A stretch of DNA of 64,000 nt from Candidatus Latescibacterota bacterium (GTDB lineage Bacteria > Latescibacterota > UBA2968 > GCA-2709665), in contig OZ252100.1 in NCBI GenBank assembly GCA_965248435.1, positions 3,168,001-3,232,000 of the forward strand, in the 5' to 3' direction. The position numbers and the translations under genes are program-made. The notes under the pieces are model-generated. The model was not told the DNA's origin. It saw nothing but the letters and a program-made list of their open reading frames with translations, and did not search any database. Within the stretch, counting starts at the first letter, position 1, and each line of letters begins with the position of its first letter. Positions 3,562 through 20,746 of this stretch are shown one piece after another.

Positions 3562-4926
3562 TCAGTTGTTAAGCACATCGGAACGAAGGTTCACTGTGAG
3601 TGTAAACGTCTCGCCTGAATCTGTGCTTTTGTAGAGAAAGAAGCCCTCGGTAATCGCGAAGGCTATTGTGGGGTCGGAGGGCGCGACCACAATATCCGTA
3701 ATTGTGCCGGTTGCATCCAGTACCGATTGACTCGACTGAAGACCATCAGTCGACCGGTAGAGCGTGGAGGAGCCTGCAAAAAGAACGAGCAGCGGATCTG
3801 AAGGAGAGACTGCGACGGGGCCGTTGGCCTGATTTATCTGAGTTGTGGACCAGGTTGTCCCGCCATCGATCGACTTTTGTAAAACAAACGAATTTCGCTC
3901 GTTCGCATAGATGGTTTGTCCGTCTGAAGAGACATCAAATCCTGTGATTAGAAGGGGCTGTAGTTCGGAGGCAAAGGCTTCCCAGGTGAGACCGGAATCT
4001 CGGCTTCTGAAGAAACCGAGATTTTCAGATGTCTCGCTGAAATTGAAGCCGAAGGTGATTAACTGGGTTTGTGGACTTGCCACCGCGAGCAATCGCCAGT
4101 ATCCGTTCTTAGTTTCATTTTCTGCGATTTCTACTCGAGACCAGGTATCACCGCGGTCGGAAGATCGATAGATACCGCCGTCAAAAAACTGACCCTGGAG
4201 GGCAGAGAATGAGGCCTCGCCGCCTTCCACGCCAATGATGACGACGTTGGGACTGTCCGGATCGACCTGAACGGAGGTGATGCGGGAATTGAAGAGCCCG
4301 CAGTTCGCACGGCTCCAGGTTTCTCCACCGTCCGTACTTTTGTAGACGCCGGCGGGGGCACTCGGGTGGTCCCCGATGATCGGTCCGGGCGAGTCCAGGG
4401 TCGCTGCGTAGACGTTGGATGGATCGACCGGGTCGAAGGCGATGTCCCAGACTTCCGGGTAACCATTGTTCGTGTGACGCAATCCGCTGCGGAACCTCGT
4501 CCAGCTTTCGCCACCATCGGTGCTCTTCACGAACCCGTTGCGCTCGGTGCCGATAAGGAGGATCTCCGGGTCCGATGGATGGACCGTCAGCGACCGGAAT
4601 GCATTGTCGTGGTCGGCCCCCTCCGGTCCGTCTGGTCCCTGGATGATCTCTAGCCCGTTTCCGACCTCGTTCCCACAGTCCTCCGGCTTTACCTCCTGAT
4701 CAAACAGCAAGACGAATGCGATAAAATCGAGGAGGTCGACCTTGCCACTGTGGTCGAGGTCGTACTTGCTCTGGGTGCTTTCGAAGGCTAATGCGAATTC
4801 TATGAAGTCGAGTAGATCGATCTTCCCACTGCCGTCAAAGTCGGCGTCGAAGGCTGTCTGTCCCAGGGCCGTGTGTGGAATGAGCAGCAGCAGCGAAACG
4901 ATGAGGATTGTCGTAGGTTTACTCAA
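3562..4926 (-). CDS. Secreted BNR/Asp-box (VPS10-like) beta-propeller protein with N-terminal EF-hand/dockerin-like pair
   Basis: Signal peptide; DFDGSGKIDLLDF and DLDHSGKVDLLDF repeats; many SxDxGxTW boxes. Confidence 0.8.
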   Translation of the reverse strand: MSKPTTILIVSLLLLIPHTALGQTAFDADFDGSGKIDLLDFIEFALAFESTQSKYDLDHSGKVDLLDFIAFVLLFDQEVKPEDCGNEVGNGLEIIQGPDGPEGADHDNAFRSLTVHPSDPEILLIGTERNGFVKSTDGGESWTRFRSGLRHTNNGYPEVWDIAFDPVDPSNVYAATLDSPGPIIGDHPSAPAGVYKSTDGGETWSRANCGLFNSRITSVQVDPDSPNVVIIGVEGGEASFSALQGQFFDGGIYRSSDRGDTWSRVEIAENETKNGYWRLLAVASPQTQLITFGFNFSETSENLGFFRSRDSGLTWEAFASELQPLLITGFDVSSDGQTIYANERNSFVLQKSIDGGTTWSTTQINQANGPVAVSPSDPLLVLFAGSSTLYRSTDGLQSSQSVLDATGTITDIVVAPSDPTIAFAITEGFFLYKSTDSGETFTLTVNLRSDVLNN

Positions 4927-4935
4927 TTGTCCTCG

Positions 4936-6114
4936 TCAGCCCTTGTGCTTGACCGTGAAGAAGGTGCCCAGCATCTCGCCCTCCCTGATGTCGTCCGGGT
5001 CGGCGTTGCCGTAGACGGCCAGCAGGGTGTCTGGCGCAACCTCTTCGACAGCACAGTAGTTCCACGCGTCCCAGGCCTTTGGGCCGTGATAGAACTGGAA
5101 GTGTCCGACCCAGGTGTCTCCGTCATCTGCGCTGAACATCAACCAGTTGTAAGGGCGACCGTATATGACGACAACGACCCCACTCTCCATCACGGTGGCA
5201 ACCGGCATCACGCCGCGGTCCGCGACGGGGAGGGGCATGCTCCATGTGTTGCCGGCATCGTTAGACCTGCTCATTCGGAGCGGCCTGACGCCGCCCCCGC
5301 CTACAGATCGCATGAAGGCGAGGACCTCCCCATTGGGCAGGATGACCGCATCCGGCTCGGTGAAGCCACCCAGGGTTGTTCTGTTGTTTCTGCTGAGGTC
5401 GAAGGCAACCGTTGAAAGATAGGTCCAATCTTTCCCGCGATCGGTGGAGCGGAAGGCAAAGATCCGGTTTTTAGGGAGGTCCCGGTTGTAGACGGTGCCG
5501 TTCTTCGAGACAGAGGTTCCGAAAACCACGACCGGGTCGTCCTCCCATCTGGCATAGTCGATGCCAAGCAGACTGCCGTCCCGGAGCTCCAGTATCCGCG
5601 CGTGACTCATCGCACTCAACTTCATCTTCTCGGGCACGTGGATGGCGATCTGTTCCAATTCCTCCGTCAGTCCGTTGTCTCGGGAGCGGACCAGCCATCC
5701 AAAGGACTTGGTGAAGCCCTTCAGATCACTTTTCTCGTCAGGTGGCGCAGCGTCGCAGGACAGACCGTCGCGCCTGACGAACTGGACGGTTTCGCCGTCG
5801 GACAGGTTGCAGGAATAGTTCGAGAACAGGGTGTTGACCTTGCTCCAGGATTTGGCCCCGTCGGTAGAACGCACTTGCGCATTTCTGGTGCCGGCTACAA
5901 GGTCGCCGTTGGGAAATTTGACGATGCTCCCGACACAAATCCCTCCGGCGTCTTCTTGAGGTATGATGACCTGAGTTTCACCTCGTTCAACTTCCAGACC
6001 GGCTCCGGTAAGCTCGCCCTGGACGTCCTCCAGGGTGTTGCACTGCAGGTCCTCAGGAATGTTGTAGCCGAAGGATTTTCTGTCCTTGGACCAGTGTGTC
6101 GATGGTATTGTCAT
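4936..6114 (-). CDS. Sialidase-like BNR-repeat protein (paralog 1)
   Basis: Asp-boxes STDRGKDW, SNDAGNTW, SADDGDTW; ATG at 6114 after a GGAGGAGG SD; no signal peptide. Confidence 0.8.
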   Translation of the reverse strand: MTIPSTHWSKDRKSFGYNIPEDLQCNTLEDVQGELTGAGLEVERGETQVIIPQEDAGGICVGSIVKFPNGDLVAGTRNAQVRSTDGAKSWSKVNTLFSNYSCNLSDGETVQFVRRDGLSCDAAPPDEKSDLKGFTKSFGWLVRSRDNGLTEELEQIAIHVPEKMKLSAMSHARILELRDGSLLGIDYARWEDDPVVVFGTSVSKNGTVYNRDLPKNRIFAFRSTDRGKDWTYLSTVAFDLSRNNRTTLGGFTEPDAVILPNGEVLAFMRSVGGGGVRPLRMSRSNDAGNTWSMPLPVADRGVMPVATVMESGVVVVIYGRPYNWLMFSADDGDTWVGHFQFYHGPKAWDAWNYCAVEEVAPDTLLAVYGNADPDDIREGEMLGTFFTVKHKG

Positions 6115-6162
6115 GATTGCCTCCTCCACTCAGGGTTCTGGCTGCTTTTCGATCGCCCGGGT

Positions 6163-7344
6163 TCAGCTTTTTCGTTTGACCGTGAAGAATGTAGCCATCT
6201 GTTCACCTTCTTCAACATCGTCTGGGTCGGCGTTGCCGTAGACTGCGAGCAGGGTGTCGGGCCCGACTTCCTCGACGGCACAGTAGTTCCACGCGTCCCA
6301 GGCCTTTGCGCCGTGATAGAATTGAAAGTGGCCGACCCAGGTGTGACCTTCATCCGTGCTGAACATGAGCCAGTTGTAGGGGCGGCCGTAGATGACGGCG
6401 ATCACCCCGTTCTCCATTACGGTCGCAACGGCCATCACGCCCCGGTCCGCGACGGGCATGGGCATACTCCATGTCTCGCCGCCGTCGTTGGATCTGCTCA
6501 TTCGGAGCGGGCGGATGGTACCGCCGGCCACGCACCGCATAAAGCAGAGGATCTCTCCGTTTGGAAGGATCACCGCATCCGGCTCGGTAAAGCCACCAAC
6601 GGTCAGTGTGTTGGTCCTGCTGAGGTCAAAGGCCACGGTGGAAAGATAGTGCCAGGTCTTTCCTCGGTCGGTGGAACGGATGACAAAGGTCCGGGATTTG
6701 CCGACTTCCCGTGACCATACGACCCCCTCCTTCGTACACCACGTTTCAAGCGTCGCCGCACCGTCACCCTCAAAACTGCCGTAGTCAGCTGCAATCAAGC
6801 TGCCGTCGTCCAGCTCGATGATTCTTGTATGATGCATCGCGGTCAGCTTGAGCTTTTTGGGTACATGGATGGGTACAAGCTCAACTTCCTCTGTCACGCC
6901 GCTGTCCCGGGATCGGACCAGCCACCCGAAGGCCTTGGTGTAGCCTTCCACGTCGCTCGCCTCATCCGGGGGAGCGACCTCCCAGCCGTGCCCGGTACGG
7001 CTTGCGAACTGGACGGTTTCACCGTCGGACAGGTTACAGGCATAGTTTCCGAACAGAGACTTGCCTACTTTGCTCCAGGTTTTGCCGCCGTCGCTGGAAC
7101 GCACCTGCGTCTTTCGCGTGGATGACTGGAGATCCCCGTTGGGGAACCTGACGATGCTCCCGACGCAAATCCCTCCCGCGTCTTCCTGAGAGACGATGAC
7201 CTGAGTCTCCCCACGTTCCACTTCCAGGCCGGCCTCTGCAAGCTCTTCCTGGACATCATCCAGGGTTTTAACCGGCAGATCTTCCGGAATGTTTATGCCA
7301 TAGGTCTTTCTGTCCTTGGACCAGTGTGTCGAGGGTATCGTCAT
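6163..7344 (-). CDS. Sialidase-like BNR-repeat protein (paralog 2)
   Basis: Same MTIPSTHWSKDRK start and near-identical C-terminus as paralog 1; Asp-boxes SSDGGKTW, STDRGKTW, SNDGGETW. Confidence 0.8.
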   Translation of the reverse strand: MTIPSTHWSKDRKTYGINIPEDLPVKTLDDVQEELAEAGLEVERGETQVIVSQEDAGGICVGSIVRFPNGDLQSSTRKTQVRSSDGGKTWSKVGKSLFGNYACNLSDGETVQFASRTGHGWEVAPPDEASDVEGYTKAFGWLVRSRDSGVTEEVELVPIHVPKKLKLTAMHHTRIIELDDGSLIAADYGSFEGDGAATLETWCTKEGVVWSREVGKSRTFVIRSTDRGKTWHYLSTVAFDLSRTNTLTVGGFTEPDAVILPNGEILCFMRCVAGGTIRPLRMSRSNDGGETWSMPMPVADRGVMAVATVMENGVIAVIYGRPYNWLMFSTDEGHTWVGHFQFYHGAKAWDAWNYCAVEEVGPDTLLAVYGNADPDDVEEGEQMATFFTVKRKS

Positions 7345-7387
7345 GATGGGATCCTTTGTGAGAGACACCCTGCGGGGGGGTGTCCAT

Positions 7388-7603
7388 GAGACGCCCCGGT
7401 GGGGCGTCTCTACGGGTTAATGGATCGCTGGAATCGAGACGCCCCACCGGGGCGTTCCCAGGTTAATGGATCGCCAGGATCGAGACGCCCCACCGGGGCG
7501 TTCCCACGGGTTAATGGATCGCCAGGATCGAGACGCCCCACCTGGGCGTTCCCACGGGTTAATGGATCGCCAGGATCGAGACGCCCCACCGGGGCGTCTC
7601 TAC
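7388..7603. repeat. Tandem array of five REP-like palindromes with ~48-bp period
   Basis: GAGACGCCCC-N3-GGGGCGT units start at 7388, 7436, 7482, 7530 and 7578, joined by a near-constant GGTTAATGGATCGCCAGGATC linker; the outer copies end in CTCTAC (GTAG on the minus strand). Confidence 0.9.
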
Positions 7604-8651: not shown

Positions 8652-9269
8652 CTATTTCTGCGTCTTAAGTCCAGCCTTTGCCGCTGCCAGGAGCAGATCC
8701 GGATCAAGCCGCACCTTATATTCAGGATTTACGTACTGGAAGAGAATCAGACCGTCTGTTCCGACCAGATAAACGGCGGGGACTGGCAGTGGACGCCTTC
8801 CCTGAGGACTGAATACGATTCCAAAGGCCCTGGCAACGGACAAATCTTCGTCAGAAAGGACACGATACGTAAGGCCGTGCTTTTCAATCGTGTTAAGGAT
8901 CTCCTCCGGAGGATCGGGGCTGAGGGCAAGGATTTGGTATCCCAGCTCGGCAAGCTCTGGTTGGATTCGCTGCAGTTGAACCAACTGCCGGTTGCAATGG
9001 GGTCACCAGAAGCCGCGATAGAAAACCAGAACCGTCGGTTTTTTGGAAAGCGCATCCTTCAAATCGAAACGGCGACCTTTCGTGATTTTCAGGTCCACAT
9101 CCGGGATGTGCGTTCCCACCAGGAGGGGCCGAACGTCAGACGGGGCGTTGGGCAGGGTGCTTTCATCCCCGGGCTCCTTTGCATCCGAGAACGTGAAATG
9201 AAACAAGATGGCGGACAGGGGAAAAAGGAGCAGGACCCTGCTTCGATCTAAACACCTACCAAATGCCAT
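8652..9269 (-). CDS. Peroxiredoxin-like (AhpC/TSA, Prx-like2) selenoprotein, Sec at TGA 9003-9005
   Basis: ORFs 9003-9269 and 8652-8984 are in the same frame; read-through gives VLVFYRGFW-U-PHCNRQL (UxxC in place of WCPxC); hairpin follows the UGA; N-terminal hydrophobic signal. Confidence 0.85.
8972..8988 (-). promoter_or_regulatory. Candidate bacterial SECIS hairpin
   Basis: mRNA GCAGUUG-GUU-CAACUGC; the apical loop begins 21 nt after the UGA and starts with GU. Confidence 0.7.
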
Positions 9270-9428
9270 ATGTGACTCCTTCTGAAAGCACCCGTGCGCG
9301 TGAATCAGGGAGCGATTCTACATCTCGGATGATTTAAGGATAACACTCGAACGGGCGGAAAGCTAAACGAAAAAGTGTAGAAGCAGGCGGCCTCCAGGAG
9401 CATCCAAAACTGCGGTTTAACCGCTCGC

Positions 9429-12194
9429 TCAACCTCCAAGCTTCAAGATTTCCCTGGCGAAAGAGAGTTGAACAACACGATTTCGAAACGTGCCCGGTCC
9501 CTCGCTGAAGTCACTCAGCCCCAGGTTGTAACGAAGGTCTATCTGAAACCCGATCGGGAGGTCCAGGCCGGCGCCCAGAACTAAACTGGCCTCTGACCGC
9601 TTGATGTTGTCGTCGATGTCAAAACTTTGCTTTCTGCCCGCGTCCGTTATGACGGTGGTTCCACCTACCGGAAAACCGATCTGAGGTCCCAGATAGATTC
9701 GGGCTGATCTCGATAATTGACGACCGATGAGAACTGGAATGAGGATGTAGCGGACTCTGTTCGTCTCTTCCAATGCCCCAACTGTCCTGTTGTAGCCCTG
9801 GTTCGAGTAAGTCAATTCCGGCTGCAGGAACCAGCCGTGCTTGAGAAAGATTTTTTCATAGAGCCCGGCGTGCCATGCCCATCGGGACGATGTCTCGGCC
9901 GCATCTCCGGAGACCGTGGCAGCGTTGACACCGGCCCTGAAGCCCAGTCTTGGTCCCCCCGCCTGCTGCTTCTTTCCGTTGGGACGGCGATAGATCCCTA
10001 TCCGCTCTTCCAACTCCTGGTCACGCTTCGCCGCTTTTTGGAGCGCTTTCGCCTCATCGCAGGAGATAACCCGGTTCCCTTTGGCCCTGAATCCAAAAAG
10101 CGATTTGATACAGTGCCCGATTACGCGTTTCCGAAAAACCAAGCGGTAGGCCTCCGGGGCTGCGTACCGTGGATAATGCGCATCGGGATCGACCTGATCG
10201 AGTCGACGGTTGAGTTCCAAAAGCTGCGTCTCGAGGAGGACGCGGCCGCGGGTGAAGGAGAGAAGGTCTCGCGTGTATGCCCCTCCCTCAGCGTAGGCGA
10301 CGGTTGCGATCCGGTCGGCTTTCAGACGGCTTGTCGTGCTCTCCCGGGATAGGATATTTCGTACCGTGTCACGGAGGGCAGCCCGATCAGAATCGAGGAT
10401 CGTTCCGATCTTGGCCAGGGCGTCGAGTACCTCCTCCGACTCCTCCCTGGCGACGCCCGCCATGAACTCGACCACCCCCTGCTGCTGGGAGCGCGTGAAG
10501 CGTCCAGTGTTTCCGAAGTCGATGATCGTCAGGTGAGAGTTTCCCACAAAGCGGTCCTCGAACTGTCCCTCGCCCTCCTGAAGCGAGAAGAAGACGTTTC
10601 CCGAATGAAGGTCTCCGTGGAAGAAACCGCTTCCTAACAGTGCCTCTTGCATCCAGAGTTTTGCCAGCTCAAAAAGGGCTTCACCTTCGGACGACAACAG
10701 GTTTGCCAGGTAGTGGTCGGCAACCGCGCGATTGGCCTTGTGTGTTTCAGCTCTGACGGTGGCGTCTACCTCGGTGAGTTTCTCGTTGATCTTGTCGAGC
10801 GTGGGCGCGTCGACGAATTCGATCGCCACGAGAGAGTCAGAGGGGGAAACGAACTCAACCACGCGAGCGACCCCGATTCTGGGATGTCGGTAAACCCGAG
10901 TGGCTTCTCGAATTTCGTCGGCCTCGCGACCCAGGTTCATCTCCCGTTCCAGCGTTGCACGCACGTCTTTGATCAGCTTTTTCGCGAAAGGCGTTTCTGC
11001 GGCGCCCTCGAAGAGCGCCATCTCCCGTTCTACAGATTCTATCAACCCGGGACGCTTGACTTTGATGATGAATCGCCTCGAGCGAGCCGAACCCTTATCC
11101 ACGGTCACTTTGTGCGCCTGTGCAATCGTACCCGCGCCGACGGCTCGATAATCTACCGTGAGGCGGGGATAGATCGAATCAGGGACGGACCGGCGAAGAA
11201 CGGAATCGATCGTTTCTCGGATGTCTTGTTCTCCATACACTTTGATCCCGCTCTTCAACTCGTTCAGCTGCGCGCGAACCTTCGGATTGTTCGTGTAGTC
11301 GGCGATCATCTGGAAGAGTTTCTGGAGAACCGGGCCGCTCGCGTGAAACATCGCCGCCATCCGGCGGTGAGGCTCTGCCATAAGGTAGTGGATGGCCATC
11401 CGGTGTTTATCCCTGAAGGTCCGATAGTAGATCGGGAGGTGAAGATTCAGGAGCTCGGCGTATTTTTCGGGCATTCCCGCAGTCAGGGCACCGATATCCA
11501 TCATCTGGCTGAAGTCGATAGAGTTCGAAGATACCTGGCCGTTGCCCAGCAGGCGATCGTTGACAGTATTGACGATGTCCACGTAGAAGCTGTCACTGAA
11601 GGCGTGGTCGATGAGTTGTCGCCGTTGCGAAAGGTCCAGATCTCTATAGACACGCTCGAGCACCCCGAGGGCAGCGGTGCGTGCCGCAGGCACTGCGCAA
11701 GGATCGGCGCTAGAGTCCACGAGCTGTGCAAACTCACTCCAGGCGCTCTCGACCCAGCCCGTCGTCTGTATGACGAGCCTTCTACAGACCAGGGAGTCGA
11801 CCCGTGACTGGAGGGCGTTGACATCTCCGACGAGGTCTTTGACCTGCGCCGCTTCGGTAATATGGGGAAGGCCGCCATTCAGCCATTGGAGGAGATCCGG
11901 ATACTTCGCAGCGACCGTCTTGAGGCGCTCAGCGCTTTCCTGCGTCCGTTGGAGATCCGTTCGTGATAGGGCACAGGCGTGAACGATTTCTGCGAGGAAG
12001 ATTCGGAACAGGGGCCCGTCTGCTCGATCCTGACTCTGCAAGATGGTTTGGAGCTGGTCTGCGGGGTATTCAGGAAGGAGGAGCGGCTGGGCGGCTGCTC
12101 TGGAGTAGAACAGCGCGGGCCATATCAGAAGGGTGAGCCAGCGAGGAAAAATCCGGACGAAGTGGCCACGGGTCCGTGTTTGGGGAGAGGCCAT
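9429..12194 (-). CDS. Signal peptide + AarF/ABC1/UbiB atypical kinase + C-terminal PorT-like outer-membrane beta-barrel fusion
   Basis: GPVLQKLFQ, GAGTIAQAH, IKVKRPG, FFHGDLHSGN and IIDFG kinase motifs; last ~175 aa read LGFRAGVN...LQPELTYSNQG...YILIPV...IYLGPQIG...IDLRYNLGLSD...NRVVQLS. Confidence 0.85.
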   Translation of the reverse strand: MASPQTRTRGHFVRIFPRWLTLLIWPALFYSRAAAQPLLLPEYPADQLQTILQSQDRADGPLFRIFLAEIVHACALSRTDLQRTQESAERLKTVAAKYPDLLQWLNGGLPHITEAAQVKDLVGDVNALQSRVDSLVCRRLVIQTTGWVESAWSEFAQLVDSSADPCAVPAARTAALGVLERVYRDLDLSQRRQLIDHAFSDSFYVDIVNTVNDRLLGNGQVSSNSIDFSQMMDIGALTAGMPEKYAELLNLHLPIYYRTFRDKHRMAIHYLMAEPHRRMAAMFHASGPVLQKLFQMIADYTNNPKVRAQLNELKSGIKVYGEQDIRETIDSVLRRSVPDSIYPRLTVDYRAVGAGTIAQAHKVTVDKGSARSRRFIIKVKRPGLIESVEREMALFEGAAETPFAKKLIKDVRATLEREMNLGREADEIREATRVYRHPRIGVARVVEFVSPSDSLVAIEFVDAPTLDKINEKLTEVDATVRAETHKANRAVADHYLANLLSSEGEALFELAKLWMQEALLGSGFFHGDLHSGNVFFSLQEGEGQFEDRFVGNSHLTIIDFGNTGRFTRSQQQGVVEFMAGVAREESEEVLDALAKIGTILDSDRAALRDTVRNILSRESTTSRLKADRIATVAYAEGGAYTRDLLSFTRGRVLLETQLLELNRRLDQVDPDAHYPRYAAPEAYRLVFRKRVIGHCIKSLFGFRAKGNRVISCDEAKALQKAAKRDQELEERIGIYRRPNGKKQQAGGPRLGFRAGVNAATVSGDAAETSSRWAWHAGLYEKIFLKHGWFLQPELTYSNQGYNRTVGALEETNRVRYILIPVLIGRQLSRSARIYLGPQIGFPVGGTTVITDAGRKQSFDIDDNIKRSEASLVLGAGLDLPIGFQIDLRYNLGLSDFSEGPGTFRNRVVQLSFAREILKLGG

Positions 12195-12228: not shown

Positions 12229-13662
12229 TCAGGCATGAACCGGTGGTCGTTTGTGGACCCAGGGTTTGGCCTCTTCCAGCTGTGCGCCGAGTCTGAACAG
12301 CAGGGCCTCATCTGCGTACCGACTAACGAATTGTACGCCGACCGGGAGGTTGTCTGACGTCCAGTGCAGGGGGACAGACATGGCCGGACCTCCGCTCACG
12401 TTGAACAAGGGGGTCAGCGAAGCGTAGCTCCACAGTTGATTTATGTATGCCTCGGCGTCTTCCACCATCATGTCGAGGGTCCCGAGCGGCAGCGGGGGTT
12501 TGGGGAGCGTTGGGGTAACCAGCACATCGTATTTCTCGAAGAAATGGCCGACCTGACGGCCGACGCGATGAAGCGTCTGTGTGGCCGTCACGTAAGCAGA
12601 CGCCCGGGCTGTGTCGCCTATTTTGGCGATCTGCCAGGTTACGTTTTCGAATTCGGACGGGCTCGCTTTCCGACCCCTGGCTGCGGAATATTGTTCCACG
12701 GTAGAGGACACGCTGGCGGACATGATGATCTTGATGGCGTTGAAGATCTCATCTGCCGACACCTGAGGCGACGCTTCCTCTACTTTGTGACCCAGGTCCG
12801 CGACGAGCTTTACGGCGTCTTCCATGGCCTGAACACACTCGGGATGCACCGGGACCCCTGAGGGCGGCACGGACGAAAAGGCTATGCGCAGGTTTTCGAC
12901 GTCTGCGCCCACCTCTTCGATGAAGGGTCGCTCCGGGGGCGGTGTGTAGTATGGTGCCCCGATATCGGGACCCGAGGTCAAGTCCATCATCGCGGCGCTA
13001 TCCCGGACCGTACGACTGAGTACGTGCTCGACGCTCATCCCACTCCATCCCTCACCGCGGTCGGGTCCGGCGGGATTGCGTCCTCTTGTCGGCTTCAGAC
13101 CAAACAGCCCGCAGCAGGAGGCCGGAATGCGTATCGATCCGCCCCCGTCACTCCCGCTGGCGATGGGGACGATGCCGGCGGCGATCGCTGCTGCCGAACC
13201 CCCGCTGGAGCCCCCCGGTATACGTTCTGTGTTCCAAGGGTTGCGCGTCGGGCCGAACAGCTGAGGCTCCGTCGCCGCATTGAGGCCGAATTCAGGTGTG
13301 TTGGTCTTTCCGAAGATGACCAACCCACCCTGCCTATAGCGGCGGACCATCTCGGTGTCGTGATCCGGTAGATTATCGATCAGGAAGCGACTGCCGCTGG
13401 TTGATGCGAAACCGGTGCAGTGGGCATGGATGTCCTTAAGGAGAAACGGCACACCCGTGAAGGGTCCATCCGTCAACCCGGCTGCGATGGCCGCCCGGGC
13501 ATGGTCATACATTTCTGCCACGACGGCATTGATCTCGGGGTTCACACGTTCTGTACGGGCGATCGCCTCGTCGAGCAGGTCATCAGCCGAGACCTGCCTG
13601 GACCGTACGAGGTTTGCTAGGCCGAGCCCATCGAAATCACCGTAATCACTGAATCCGCTCAT
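12229..13662 (-). CDS. Amidase-signature family amidase
   Basis: [39 protein letters not shown]. Confidence 0.95.
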
Positions 13663-13717
13663 CGATTCTTCCTTTGCCTACGTCGCTTCGGCGGAACATC
13701 CACGCTTGGATCTTCCT

Positions 13718-13746
13718 TTGACATTTTCCTGTACGAGATTTATCAT
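13718..13746 (+). promoter_or_regulatory. Sigma70 promoter upstream of the PhyH gene
   Basis: TTGACA-N17-TATCAT. Confidence 0.65.
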
Positions 13747-13812
13747 TCGCTGATGTTACGAAGTTCCTGAAGCCATTGTGCAACACCATGATACTAAAGA
13801 AAAGGGCGGGGA

Positions 13813-14670
13813 ATGGAGATAAATCTTGGCGCGCAGCTTCTCCCTGAGGAGACGATCCGGCAGTTTGATGAGGAAGGGTATCTGATCATTCGCGAGGCGC
13901 TGGACGTGGGGACGATAGACTTGCTCACAGAGGCTGGCGACCGTCTCGTGTCCAGCGATCGTTCTGAGAACCGCCAAAGGAGTGAGGATGGTCAGTACGA
14001 CAGCTTTCGCAACTGCATTGCTCTGGACGATGCCTTTGTTCCACTCCTGGTCCACGGGAAGGTCTTTCCGATCGTCGTTCAGCTGCTGGGAGCCTACCTC
14101 CATTTAACGACTTCACATCTGATCTATAAATTCCCTGATCCCCACGACACATCCGCCTCGGTCCGTTCCCCTGAGTGGCATCGCGATTATGGGCGCCTGA
14201 CTCAGGATCTGGGTCACGCGGCGGTCCCGCGCGCTATGTTGAAGTGCGCTTATTACTTGACCGATTTGATCGAGCCGAACTCGGGAGCGACGCTGGTTGT
14301 GCCTGGAAGCAACCTGCTTCGCAAGCCGCTGGAGATTGCAGAGGGAGAGGCTGATCCTGATGGCGTTTTTGAGCCGCGTTTGAGGCGTGGAGACTGTCTT
14401 CTATTCGAGAACCGAACCTGGCACGCAGGCGCTGCGAACCTTTCTGATCACACGCGCAAGGCTGTTATGTTCGGGTATGGCTATCGCTGGGCTGCGCCGA
14501 TCGACTATCGAACTCAACCTGCTTCATTGTTAGAAAAGGTAGATCCATTGGGGCGCTATCTTCTGGGTGAACCCATGAAGGCGTCCAGCGAGTACCAGAT
14601 TAGCGGGGGGGAGAGCCCCCTGAGAGCCTGGTGTGAGAAACATGGGCTGCCTCTAGTGAGACCGCAGTAG
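13813..14670 (+). CDS. Phytanoyl-CoA dioxygenase (PhyH) family Fe(II)/2OG oxygenase
   Basis: FDEEGYLII, WHRD, VVPGSN, WHAG...R triad pattern. Confidence 0.9.
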   Translation: MEINLGAQLLPEETIRQFDEEGYLIIREALDVGTIDLLTEAGDRLVSSDRSENRQRSEDGQYDSFRNCIALDDAFVPLLVHGKVFPIVVQLLGAYLHLTTSHLIYKFPDPHDTSASVRSPEWHRDYGRLTQDLGHAAVPRAMLKCAYYLTDLIEPNSGATLVVPGSNLLRKPLEIAEGEADPDGVFEPRLRRGDCLLFENRTWHAGAANLSDHTRKAVMFGYGYRWAAPIDYRTQPASLLEKVDPLGRYLLGEPMKASSEYQISGGESPLRAWCEKHGLPLVRPQ

Positions 14671-14674
14671 AAGC

Positions 14675-14761
14675 AGTTTCGAGTTGCGAGTTTAAAGTTT
14701 CTAGTCAAAACCGAAGCTCATCTGATATGAACTAGAAACCCGAGACTAGAAACCAGAAACT
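14675..14761. repeat. Inverted clusters of 7-bp repeats between convergent genes
   Basis: AGTTTCG AGTTGCG AGTTTAA AGTTTCT AGT ... ACTAGAA ACCCGAG ACTAGAA ACCAGAA ACT. Confidence 0.55.
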
Positions 14762-15399
14762 TTTTTCTGCCAGTTAAGCGCCAGGGCTTTCACGGCCAGG
14801 TAGAGGACGGCTCCGTTCAAGATGTGCCAGAGGAAGTGGGTACCGAAGGGCACAAGATCACAAACGACGGAATCTATCGTGCGGAAGGTGAGTGAGACCA
14901 GGAAGATTGCGGATGCAACGAGCAGGGCCAGGCGTGCCCGCTTTTTGGTGATGTAGTGGTATGATCCAAAACAGATCAAGACCAGGAGGCCGGGGGCGTA
15001 TGAAAGCGACCTGTTCAAGACATCAGGGAGCTGCCTTCCGAGAACGGCCAAGATGAAGAAGCAGCAAAGGGTCGCTCCGGATGCTGCCCGGCTCAGCTGG
15101 ATGATCCGCCTCGAGTAGAGCCAAACGAAACATATTTGAAAGAGGAGGATCGGGGTCACGTCGAGAAGCTGTGCCCAGGTCGTCGCGAGGGTGTGAAATA
15201 AGGTGCTGCCGATCCCGATCGCGAGGATGAGCGCGATCAGAAGCGTGGCCGCGCTCGATTCCCTGTCGGAGTTACGGACCAACCTCCAGGCGGCCCAGGC
15301 TGCGGCGAAGAACGCGAGGTTCGTCAGCGCATTCATCGGTTCCGCCCATAGCCCGGGCTCGGTTCGCTCGCAGTATAGATCGACGCACCCAGAGGTCAC
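14746..15399 (-). CDS. Ceramidase-like (CREST superfamily) membrane protein
   Basis: YCER...WAEPMNALTN, GSTLFH, GTHFLWH motifs; about 7 hydrophobic segments. Confidence 0.82.
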   Translation of the reverse strand: MTSGCVDLYCERTEPGLWAEPMNALTNLAFFAAAWAAWRLVRNSDRESSAATLLIALILAIGIGSTLFHTLATTWAQLLDVTPILLFQICFVWLYSRRIIQLSRAASGATLCCFFILAVLGRQLPDVLNRSLSYAPGLLVLICFGSYHYITKKRARLALLVASAIFLVSLTFRTIDSVVCDLVPFGTHFLWHILNGAVLYLAVKALALNWQKKVSGF

Positions 15400-19468: not shown

Positions 19469-20746
19469 TCATCCAAACTTTGTCAGATGCTCGTAGAACC
19501 AGGAGACGGGAAGCCCCAAACATACGTCGGCCCTGTAGGGTTCCGTCTCCTCCTGGGTCAATTCATATCCCGGTCTGCCCTGCTCGTCGATGATGTAAAG
19601 TTCTCTTTTCGCCGTTCGGTAACGAACGATCGCCGTCTCATTCCAGAAATCCAGGAAGGGATAGGTCGCCTCCATATCGTTGGCCGGAAGTCTGGAGGCT
19701 TTAAGCATGGCCCGGTAGGTTCCCGGCAGGGGTGGTTCCACGTAGGTCCGGTCACCTTCCTGCTGGAAGGTGGAGAAGACGTTCCGGCTGTGGCTCCAGG
19801 TGGCCCCGCCATTCATGCTGACGGCGGTGGAGATGCGGTGGCGCTGAAAACCCCGCTGCGTCTCGTCTGGGGAGGACTGATTCCAGATAATGAGCAGGTG
19901 ATCCGATCCCGGCATCCGGCCGATGGCGGCCGGCGCGAGCGACGAGGCCAGGCTTGTCGGCTCGGGGAGGCTCCAGGTGTCGCCGTTATCGTTCGACCAG
20001 GACTGGTAGAGCCTTCCCAGGGGGGTGCGGAGGATCATCAGGAGATGCTCAGGACTCACTTCAACGACCACCGGCTCGTTGGCCCGGTAGTGGCCTCCTG
20101 CGGATTCGTCCAGCGTGACAAAGAGCTCTCCTCCGCCGGCCCAAACCCCCTTCTCGCGATTCGGCTGCCAGGTGGCCCCCTCGTCGTCGGAGTGATAGAT
20201 CCAGCAGTATGTGAAGAAGTTCTCGTAGCCGTGGTGTCCGATCAGGGCCAGGTCATCACCGAACAGGGCGCGGCCTTTCTCGCGCATCGTGCTGCCGACG
20301 AGCGCGTAGACGGGAGCGATGATGCGCCCCGTTGACGTGACGGTGACCCCGCTGTGCAACACCGAGTTGTTGTTGGGTTCACCGACATACGTCGGGGTGG
20401 ACCAGGTGGCGCCCTCGTCTTCAGATCGGGCAAACCAGTCCCGCTTCAAGTATCGCTCTCTTCCGGTCACCCGAAAGAACCCACCGAGGCTTCCGGACTT
20501 CAACCTGACGAAGTGTCGAAAAATGAGCTCGGCATCTTTACCGTCCTCCCATTTCATGGGCTCGGGATCGGCCCAGGTTTTTCCTCCATCCTCGGAAAGG
20601 CGCCTGCCGGAATCGGTCGACCACATCAACGAGCCTTCTTTGAGCTCGACAGTTGCACCGTAGTCGCTGCCGACGTGCAGAAAAAGGGCGTCCTCGGGCG
20701 TGAAGGACTTGACTTGATCGATGTATGCTTGATCGGCCATGGGCAT
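19469..20746 (-). CDS. Sialidase-like BNR-repeat protein
   Basis: Asp-boxes SEDGGKTW, SEDEGATW, SDDEGATW, SNDNGDTW, SMNGGATW. Confidence 0.85.
   Translation of the reverse strand: MPMADQAYIDQVKSFTPEDALFLHVGSDYGATVELKEGSLMWSTDSGRRLSEDGGKTWADPEPMKWEDGKDAELIFRHFVRLKSGSLGGFFRVTGRERYLKRDWFARSEDEGATWSTPTYVGEPNNNSVLHSGVTVTSTGRIIAPVYALVGSTMREKGRALFGDDLALIGHHGYENFFTYCWIYHSDDEGATWQPNREKGVWAGGGELFVTLDESAGGHYRANEPVVVEVSPEHLLMILRTPLGRLYQSWSNDNGDTWSLPEPTSLASSLAPAAIGRMPGSDHLLIIWNQSSPDETQRGFQRHRISTAVSMNGGATWSHSRNVFSTFQQEGDRTYVEPPLPGTYRAMLKASRLPANDMEATYPFLDFWNETAIVRYRTAKRELYIIDEQGRPGYELTQEETEPYRADVCLGLPVSWFYEHLTKFG

Follow-up and report, generated by a model that had tools for sequence, protein, structure and literature searches.

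A putatively exported UbiB/ABC1-family protein fused to a small outer-membrane beta-barrel in Candidatus Latescibacterota

Gene and protein architecture

The window analysed here is the whole stretch of 64,000 nucleotides from a marine Candidatus Latescibacterota bacterium (contig OZ252100.1, positions 3,168,001 to 3,232,000), which sits in a 2-contig genome assembly of 5.67 Mb. On its reverse strand, positions 9429-12194 hold a single intact open reading frame (ORF) that starts with ATG and translates into 921 amino acids (aa) without internal stops. Our analysis revealed that the architecture of the product, P0001, is real and conserved and comprises a putative signal peptide, an unknown helical domain, an intact UbiB core and a small outer-membrane protein (OMP) beta-barrel. 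The same composition had been proposed in a first-pass annotation made from the sequence, and the ORF, the expected pair of Pfam domains (ABC1 and OMP_b-brl_2, both above cut-off) and the structural model all agree with it. The full-length AlphaFold2 model had a mean predicted local distance difference test (pLDDT) score of 89.9 and a predicted template modelling score of 0.79. Its input was a 75-row alignment drawn from 154 stored proteins, namely close relatives, signal-bearing family members of 560-900 aa and 13 barrel-only proteins. From the N- to the C-terminus the model ran through a signal helix (residues 12-28), an all-helical part reaching approximately residue 242, a kinase-like module reaching approximately residue 700, a helix (712-732), a low-confidence tether (733-748) and strands (749-918). 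The coordinates of all parts are given in Table 1.

Table 1. Features of the gene for P0001 and its downstream flank, in window positions.
Feature	Residues	Position	Strand	Basis
Whole gene, exported UbiB-like protein with OMP barrel	1-921	9429..12194	-	ORF list, translation; stop codon 9429-9431
Putative Sec-type signal peptide	1-35	12090..12194	-	Sequence, heuristic, conserved mature start, modelled helix 12-28
N-terminal all-helical domain	36-242	11469..12089	-	Helices in models; fold not recognised
UbiB/ABC1 kinase-like module	243-700	10095..11468	-	Pfam, NCBIfam, Foldseek, COQ8A profile alignment, motif conservation
Linker	701-748	9951..10094	-	Loop, helix 712-732 and Lys/Gln/Gly/Pro-rich low-confidence tether 733-748 (model, pLDDT, alignments)
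8-stranded outer-membrane beta-barrel	749-921	9432..9950	-	Pfam, model strands, Foldseek, stand-alone OMP alignments
Terminator-like hairpin, 5 nucleotides past the stop codon		9412..9424	-	Pattern scan, consensus match only

The junction between kinase module and barrel was covered by independent assemblies. From run X1, possibly the source sample itself, a 27,503-nucleotide short-read contig covered 9300-12300 with no differences, and a 151-nucleotide contig of run X8, from an unrelated seawater study, spanned the linker (9919-10069) with two. Five fragments came from run X7, with identities of 99% or more in three of them; runs X5, X7 and X8 each covered only parts of the gene. The GC content was uniform over the gene and its flanks. 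Furthermore, the colinear fusion was also found in P0002 (921 aa, 53% identical), in P0003 (903 aa, 50%) and in the six-member P0012/P0158 cluster, whose longest member, P0158 (333 aa), aligned to residues 587-920 with 43% identity, from the C-lobe of the kinase through the linker and over the whole barrel. The fusion therefore occurs in four lineages (P0001, P0002, P0003 and the P0012/P0158 cluster) at 43-53% identity, and the comparison of these sequences indicates that the architecture has been kept over at least 50% sequence divergence. Since contigs from two studies crossed the junction (9950-10050 in the first-pass annotation, which had called for reads there and for homologues of the same architecture) and the homologues shared the fusion, a chimeric assembly is excluded.

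The kinase-like module matched Pfam ABC1 (PF03109) over residues 323-591 (window 10422-11228) with 63.9 bits against a cut-off of 22.9. In the Foldseek search ranks 1-5 were all COQ8A/ADCK3 chains (E 2.8e-10 to 3.3e-9; template modelling (TM) score 0.65-0.70 on target, and 0.69-0.70 for the best), followed by the mycobacterial UbiB-like ATPases MSMEG_1954 and Rv3197 (E 1e-8 to 1e-6; TM 0.43-0.50 on target). The motifs of the family could be located in a profile alignment to COQ8A; their names (KxGQ extension, Ala-rich loop) follow the UbiB literature. The KxGQ-type helix GPVLQKLFQMI aligned to the KLGQM region of COQ8A and reads K292-L-F-Q295, with Phe in place of Gly, while the A/G-rich nucleotide loop GAGTIAQAH aligned to AAASIGQVH. 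The VAIK-type Lys is K378 within IIKVKRPG and the alpha-C Glu is E418; the catalytic loop HGDLHSGN (H526-G-D528...N533) and the DFG motif (D559-F-G) also aligned to COQ8A. In the 75-row alignment, K292, Q295 and E418 were each conserved in 56 of 56 sequences, K378 in 56 of 57, D528 in 56 of 58, and N533 and D559 each in 57 of 58. Judged from these alignments, the active site is intact, with all nucleotide-binding and catalytic residues present.

Domain content, motifs and fold place the protein in the UbiB/ABC1 family, and it is not an orthologue of UbiB proper, because neither the equivalog scores nor the topology agreed. The NCBIfam UbiB model TIGR01982 matched residues 272-617 (E 4e-26) with 91.6 bits, below its equivalog cut-off of 487.55, and the PRK04750 equivalog gave 44.1 bits, below a cut-off of 667. 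E. coli UbiB faces the cytoplasm, has C-terminal membrane helices and lacks a signal peptide. P0001 has a signal-peptide-like N-terminus, no later hydrophobic 19-mer and a beta-barrel as its C-terminus. In the window's genome this gene was the only strong ABC1/UbiB match, the sole other weak match being an ordinary Hanks-type kinase, and the whole-genome search found no canonical UbiB above the equivalog cut-off. With no other UbiB-family gene in the genome, P0001 is unlikely to serve quinone biosynthesis in the cytoplasm.

The putative signal peptide comprises an n-region with R8, R14 and R18, the h-region WLTLLIWPALFY and a c-region SRAAA/Q with a cleavage-type site (AAA/Q). Both the signal peptide and its cleavage are predicted from our simple heuristic, the conservation in relatives and the modelled helix 12-28. 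In P0002-P0005 the signal sequences differ, yet all stop right before the conserved mature start Q-x-L-V-L-P-x-Y-P. Residues 36-45 of P0001 (window 12060-12089), Q-P-L-V/L-L-P-E-Y-P-A, were almost invariant across five close relatives, which suggests that they may form a functional mature N-terminus, e.g. a sorting or docking motif or an N-terminal pyroglutamate. A hydrophobic 19-mer scan found no hydrophobic segment between the signal and the barrel. Two other routes were considered and rejected: the twin-arginine motif of Tat export is absent in P0001 and its relatives, and the cleavage site lacks the cysteine of a lipoprotein.

The unknown region of about 240 aa in the first-pass annotation corresponds to the helical residues 36-242, which had no Pfam match. 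Folded alone, this domain reached a pLDDT of 77.8, and a fold search against 48,161 chains gave a best Z of 5.2, which is inside the chance range for helical proteins and is not proof of a new fold. An ESM Atlas search with the domain returned scores of at most 0.87 to unnamed clusters and was uninformative. The domain is homologous throughout the wider family, with a motif around the nearly invariant R64 (LFRIFLAEIVHA).

At the C-terminus, residues 749-897 matched Pfam OMP_b-brl_2 (PF13568) with 64.6 bits (cut-off 27) and OMP_b-brl (PF13505) matched with 42.4 bits (cut-off 28.7), the two overlapping barrel families spanning 743-913. The best barrel family in NCBIfam was TDE1717 (residues 749-898), whose 48.3 bits lie below the cut-off of 135; no PorT-named family that would bear out the label 'PorT-like' of the first-pass annotation appeared there at E<=1, the presence of a PorT model in that collection being unconfirmed. 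The AlphaFold check suggested for this region yielded a barrel of about eight strands, a number counted from DSSP only, lying between 749 and 918 with pLDDT >90 and very short turns. Foldseek matched it to Ail, OmpX, NspA and OmpA (TM 0.55-0.66 on target). Moreover, the barrel aligned end to end with stand-alone OMPs of about 200 aa, for example residues 744-920 to 22-202 of the 203-aa P0076. The last strand ends ...VVQLSFAREIL and is followed by KLGG; P0002 and P0003 likewise carry short C-terminal extensions. This is the only OMP_b-brl_2 domain of the genome, and nine Omp85-family matches (eight above cut-off, best E 4.3e-51) indicate by sequence that the beta-barrel assembly machinery (BAM) is present. 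A word-indexed search with residues 735-921 among proteins of 506-1612 aa returned the query only, and is uninformative on other enzymes fused to such a barrel. C695, in the kinase module just before the linker, and C712 were conserved in close relatives; the pair was not used as a disulphide marker, its conservation being limited to the close clade.

The wider family and known systems

When 1.84 billion cluster representatives were searched exhaustively, 3,998 matches reached E<=1e-3, of which 575 also passed E<=1e-10 and 37 passed E<=1e-30. Among the 150 matches listed, the full architecture was present in P0003 only and P0012 was a fragment over the junction. P0010 and P0084 were near-identical barrel fragments, and 13 further listed matches were stand-alone barrels of about 200 aa, 33-38% identical to residues 743-920. 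Most of the remaining listed matches were 600-850 aa long and 24-32% identical from about residue 50-280 to about 710, sharing the N-domain and the kinase module. By our heuristic, a signal-peptide-like N-terminus was carried by 58 of the 88 stored matches of 560-900 aa and by 6 of the 29 longer than 900 aa, the barrel fusions accounting for three of these six; of the remaining matches, several begin inside the N-domain and look truncated. A later hydrophobic 19-mer occurred in only 5 of 117 matches of at least 560 aa, unlike in canonical UbiB with its membrane helices. Pfam ABC1 scores were 71-78 bits for P0002-P0004 and reached 150 bits in distant exported relatives.

The named genomes nearest outside the close clade were metagenome-assembled genomes (MAGs) titled Oligoflexia, Bacteriovorax, Bdellovibrionia, Bacteriovoracia and Myxococcota, together with Endozoicomonas and Opitutae, and most Bdellovibrionota ORFs of the family start with signal peptides. 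Judged from these sequences, an exported UbiB-like family is frequent among Bdellovibrionota/Bacteriovoracia and Myxococcota MAGs; the proteins with a fused barrel make up a rare sub-branch of it. The protein thus belongs by its sequence features to a large, signal-peptide-bearing UbiB-like family without membrane helices that is apparently undescribed: in full-text literature, with few subscription journals and no supplements, neither an exported UbiB protein of bacteria nor a fusion of UbiB with a barrel was found described. The remark in the first-pass annotation that the architecture was not recognised as described therefore stands, but the architecture is not unique. The UbiB-like module was also seen in metagenome proteins of 1,200-2,400 aa without signal peptides (P0064, P0073, P0087, P0094, P0113, P0116 and P0124), in an Endozoicomonas protein with a long disordered N-terminus (locus L009, 7113-9476) and in Opitutae proteins (loci L013 and L014). 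By their sequences, these relatives look like multi-domain secreted or injected proteins.

The best genomic relative, P0004, is 56% identical and comes from an 8.08-Mb Candidatus Latescibacterota MAG (L002) that belongs to one family with the window's genome. This complete protein of 732 aa starts with the signal peptide, continues through N-domain and kinase module and ends in the linker, with no barrel; the next gene begins 14 nucleotides later. The window and L002 showed no synteny. In a maximum-likelihood tree of 12 rows that we chose, with barrel regions removed, the five close proteins formed a clade on a long stem (support 100/100), within which the barrel-bearing P0001+(P0002,P0003) had support 94/92 and P0004+P0005 had 86/85. 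This topology fits a barrel that was gained once or lost once.

Several known systems can be compared with P0001. With the UbiB/ABC1/ADCK proteins (E. coli UbiB, yeast Coq8, human COQ8A/ADCK3; PDB 4PED, 5I35, 7UDQ) it shares the ABC1 domain, the COQ8A fold, the KxGQ Lys and Gln, the Ala/Gly loop, the Lys/Glu pair, HxDxHxGN and DFG. However, it has a cleavable-type signal peptide where theirs is a matrix or cytoplasmic location, lacks C-terminal membrane helices, carries an extra helical N-domain of about 205 aa and a fused barrel, and reads K-L-F-Q at the KxGQ motif. The mycobacterial proteins Rv3197 (MABP-1) and MSMEG_1954 (PDB 5YJZ-5YK2, 7CYR), the second-best structural matches, are bacterial UbiB-like proteins with ADP or AMPPNP bound. 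They have neither an export signal nor a barrel, and the titles of the PDB entries tie their function to an ABC transporter and macrolide binding.

The closest resemblance in possible working mode was to yeast Cqd1 (ADCK2-like) and Cqd2/Mcp2, which also place a UbiB domain between two membranes, in a compartment that corresponds topologically to the periplasm. As described in parts of PMC10214851, Cqd1 contacts the outer-membrane barrel protein Por1 (the Cqd1-Por1/Om14 contact site). Passages of that article and of PMC8346625 propose that Cqd1 and Cqd2 act in the distribution of coenzyme Q and phospholipids, with their kinase-like residues required. However, Cqd1 is anchored by an inner-membrane helix and binds a 19-stranded porin non-covalently, whereas P0001 has a covalent 8-stranded outer-membrane barrel. 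The resemblance implies no orthology, and kinship is claimed at the family level only.

The barrel itself resembles OmpX, Ail, NspA, the N-domain of OmpA and the OMP_b-brl_2 'porin family' of Bacteroidota in fold and Pfam families, and stand-alone OMPs of about 200 aa at 31-38% identity, one of them named 'porin family protein [Cyclobacteriaceae]'. In contrast to stand-alone OMPs, it has lost its own signal peptide, carries an N-terminal enzyme of 700 residues and lacks a terminal aromatic residue; the order in OmpA is the opposite, with the barrel first and the periplasmic domain second. On the modelled structure, the barrel is a generic OmpX/OmpA-type anchor, and the label 'autotransporter' is not supported.

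Proposed role and competing explanations

Our preferred reading, with a probability of roughly 45%, is that P0001 acts as an extracytoplasmic, outer-membrane-anchored and periplasm-facing UbiB-family ATPase or small-molecule kinase on envelope lipids. The Sec signal peptide would carry the unfolded chain over the inner membrane, and BAM would insert the C-terminal barrel into the outer membrane. A barrel reaches the outer membrane only after Sec transit, and no membrane segment follows the signal, so the kinase module should leave the cytoplasm as well. Barrels of eight strands have both termini in the periplasm and no lumen or pore for a passenger, so the enzyme most likely lies on the inner face of the outer membrane, from which some 15-35 flexible residues would suspend the helical N-domain and the UbiB module. 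If it works like COQ8, Cqd1 and Cqd2, the module would bind and hydrolyse nucleotide, and this might drive the extraction, deposition or phosphorylation of a hydrophobic small molecule of the envelope rather than protein phosphorylation; an isoprenoid lipid or quinone, a phospholipid and a lipid-linked intermediate are the candidate substrates. The barrel would only fix the place of action, and the sister P0004 and the wider family would do the same job without it. The first-pass annotation took the enzyme to be possibly outer-membrane-tethered or surface-displayed: tethering follows from the barrel, while surface display is disfavoured by its eight strands and its likeness to OmpX, Ail and OmpA.

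The near-invariance of the catalytic residues among exported relatives argues for real nucleotide chemistry outside the cytoplasm. The COQ8 fold is described in parts of PMC8346625 as one that allows ATPase activity while occluding protein substrates. To assume that no UbiB protein faces a periplasm-like space is too strong: Cqd1 and Cqd2 face the intermembrane space, where their kinase-like residues are needed to control coenzyme Q distribution, as stated in passages of PMC10214851 and PMC8346625. Likewise, the view of the periplasm as ATP-free has to be softened, since sections of a review (PMC7432876) report ATP at micromolar levels in the E. coli periplasm and its presence in outer-membrane vesicles. 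We infer the periplasmic orientation, the nucleotide source and the lipid or small-molecule substrate.

Several points weigh against this reading. The ATP supply in the periplasm is a real, though not an absolute, objection. The orientation is derived from a general rule for small barrels and not from this protein, and the signal peptide was called from the heuristic, conservation and the model. The beta-signal at the C-terminus of OMPs normally ends in an aromatic residue, and the barrel here ends ...SFAREILKLGG. The gene is patchy, being found in 2 of 168 genomes of the phylum (E<=1e-20) and absent from the same-genus genome, a distribution more in keeping with an accessory or offensive function than with housekeeping traffic of lipids, and the wider family is enriched in predatory lineages. 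No lipid-related partner was seen in the gene neighbourhoods (the window, and in 11 distant loci the nearest 36 of the 100 extracted ORFs). In those 11 loci only close kin showed synteny (FAA hydrolase, glutathione S-transferase, copper ATPase), and none of the 36 ORFs scanned was a barrel or lipid-transport gene. Furthermore, no RNA run holding the window stretch was listed.

UbiB/COQ8 proteins are ancient and disease-relevant, and their mechanism is poorly understood. To our knowledge, all characterised members work beside an ATP pool, and the architecture found here puts this type of ATP-using enzyme in an unexpected location outside the cytoplasm. Sec signals occur together with fully conserved catalytic residues in hundreds of sequence clusters, and a single branch also carries an outer-membrane barrel. 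This pattern of sequences suggests that the bacterial envelope may be a site of kinase- or ATPase-type chemistry, or that such chemistry is sent out towards other cells. As the barrel fixes the location, the fusion is the cleanest case in which to test for periplasmic nucleotide and for UbiB action on lipids between two membranes. A soluble, cysteine-poor bacterial module may also be easier to study than Cqd1, which, according to a passage of PMC8346625, its authors could not purify. A bolder and rather unlikely extension is that exported UbiB-like enzymes form a widespread but unrecognised bacterial system for nucleotide-dependent periplasmic handling of lipids and quinones, the barrel form being the covalent counterpart of the Cqd1-porin contact site. 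If so, it would imply usable nucleotide chemistry in the periplasm and hint at an older role in the periplasm, carried on by those mitochondrial UbiB proteins that face the intermembrane space.

Among the other explanations, a role against prey or hosts, already raised in the first-pass annotation, is unlikely but has to be taken seriously, since the wider family is concentrated in predatory lineages. The kinase would travel with vesicles, the barrel keeping it on the inner face of the outer membrane, or would be released where relatives have no barrel, and it would modify lipids or small molecules of prey or host with the target's own ATP or with ATP leaked by damaged prey. The nearest relatives outside Latescibacterota, most of them signal-bearing, come from the Oligoflexia, Bacteriovorax, Bdellovibrionia and Myxococcota MAGs and the animal symbiont Endozoicomonas, and the signal-less relatives of 1,000-2,400 aa resemble multi-domain secreted effectors; moreover, the gene is accessory in the phylum and vesicles are reported to hold ATP, in the review sections cited above (PMC7432876). 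However, the UbiB fold occludes protein substrates, as parts of PMC8346625 have it, and the covalent anchor in the outer membrane argues against release. We found no sign of predation or host association in the window's organism, and within the window no secretion-system genes or toxin-immunity pair adjoin the gene.

It is improbable that the protein is a non-catalytic sensor, scaffold or binding protein that holds nucleotide (extracellular ATP or ADP) or an amphipathic ligand without turnover. COQ8A-type proteins bind adenine nucleotides tightly and periplasmic ATP is low, both of which would suit such a role. Rv3197 was solved with ADP and with erythromycin bound, as titles of the PDB entries indicate, and a periplasmic sensor domain for extracellular ATP is reported from another bacterium (PMC12625894). 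However, D528, N533 and D559, residues needed for phosphoryl transfer only, are nearly invariant, and neither a signalling output domain (Pfam) nor a partner gene (window) was evident.

Less probable still is an autotransporter-like surface display, in which the barrel exports the kinase module to the cell surface, although the order of signal peptide, passenger and C-terminal barrel resembles type Va. The translocator of type Va autotransporters is a 12-stranded barrel of about 250-300 aa whose pore is filled by a linker helix. In P0001 about eight strands in about 170 residues resemble OmpX, Ail, NspA and OmpA, the barrel aligns over its whole length with ordinary stand-alone OMPs, and no helix was modelled inside a pore. 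The Pfam Autotransporter match is weak (E 0.0088; 16.3 bits, below the cut-off of 26), and no autotransporter was among the Foldseek matches listed at E<=0.001. Finally, an artefact (a chimeric assembly, or a cytoplasmic UbiB with a misread start codon or signal) has nothing in its favour beyond the unusual architecture and is hardly credible given the 2-contig assembly, the zero-difference 27.5-kb contig, the contig of another study over the junction, the colinear fusion in four lineages and the unrelated signal sequences at the same position in relatives.

Neighbouring genes and minor features

The neighbours in the window are unrelated enzymes and other genes (an amidase, PhyH, a ceramidase-family protein, BNR proteins and a peroxiredoxin-like gene). 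Upstream, at 12229-15399, lie the amidase gene, which is on the same strand and stops 34 nucleotides before the kinase start, and genes for a PhyH-family dioxygenase and a ceramidase-family membrane protein. The latter two belong to lipid-related families, and the relatives showed no conserved linkage of them to the kinase gene. In locus L003, from an Oligoflexia MAG, an M48 peptidase gene (9229-10191, reverse strand) was located two genes from the exported UbiB-like gene, which may be coincidence.

Directly downstream, at 8652-9269 on the reverse strand, an AhpC/TSA (peroxiredoxin/redoxin-like) ORF with a signal-peptide-like N-terminus has one in-frame TGA (9003-9005) at the first position of its redox motif FYRGFW-U-PHC. 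Translation through this codon yields an AhpC-TSA domain of full length (E 3e-28). Since SelA is encoded in the genome (E 2.3e-146), the TGA probably stands for selenocysteine, and the gene probably encodes an exported selenocysteine protein rather than being a pseudogene. A hairpin about 15 nucleotides after the TGA folded no better than shuffled sequences (z 0.22).

Further downstream, an intergenic tandem repeat at 7388-7597 consists of 4.4 copies of a 48-nucleotide unit (90% match), each with the GC-rich palindrome GACGCCCCACCGGGGCGT, and yields a spurious repetitive ORF on the forward strand. Four paralogous BNR/Asp-box genes for sialidase-like or sortilin-like beta-propellers were found on the reverse strand at 3562-7368 and 19469-20746. 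Three of the four are in tandem just downstream of the kinase gene, and one has an EF-hand-like match.

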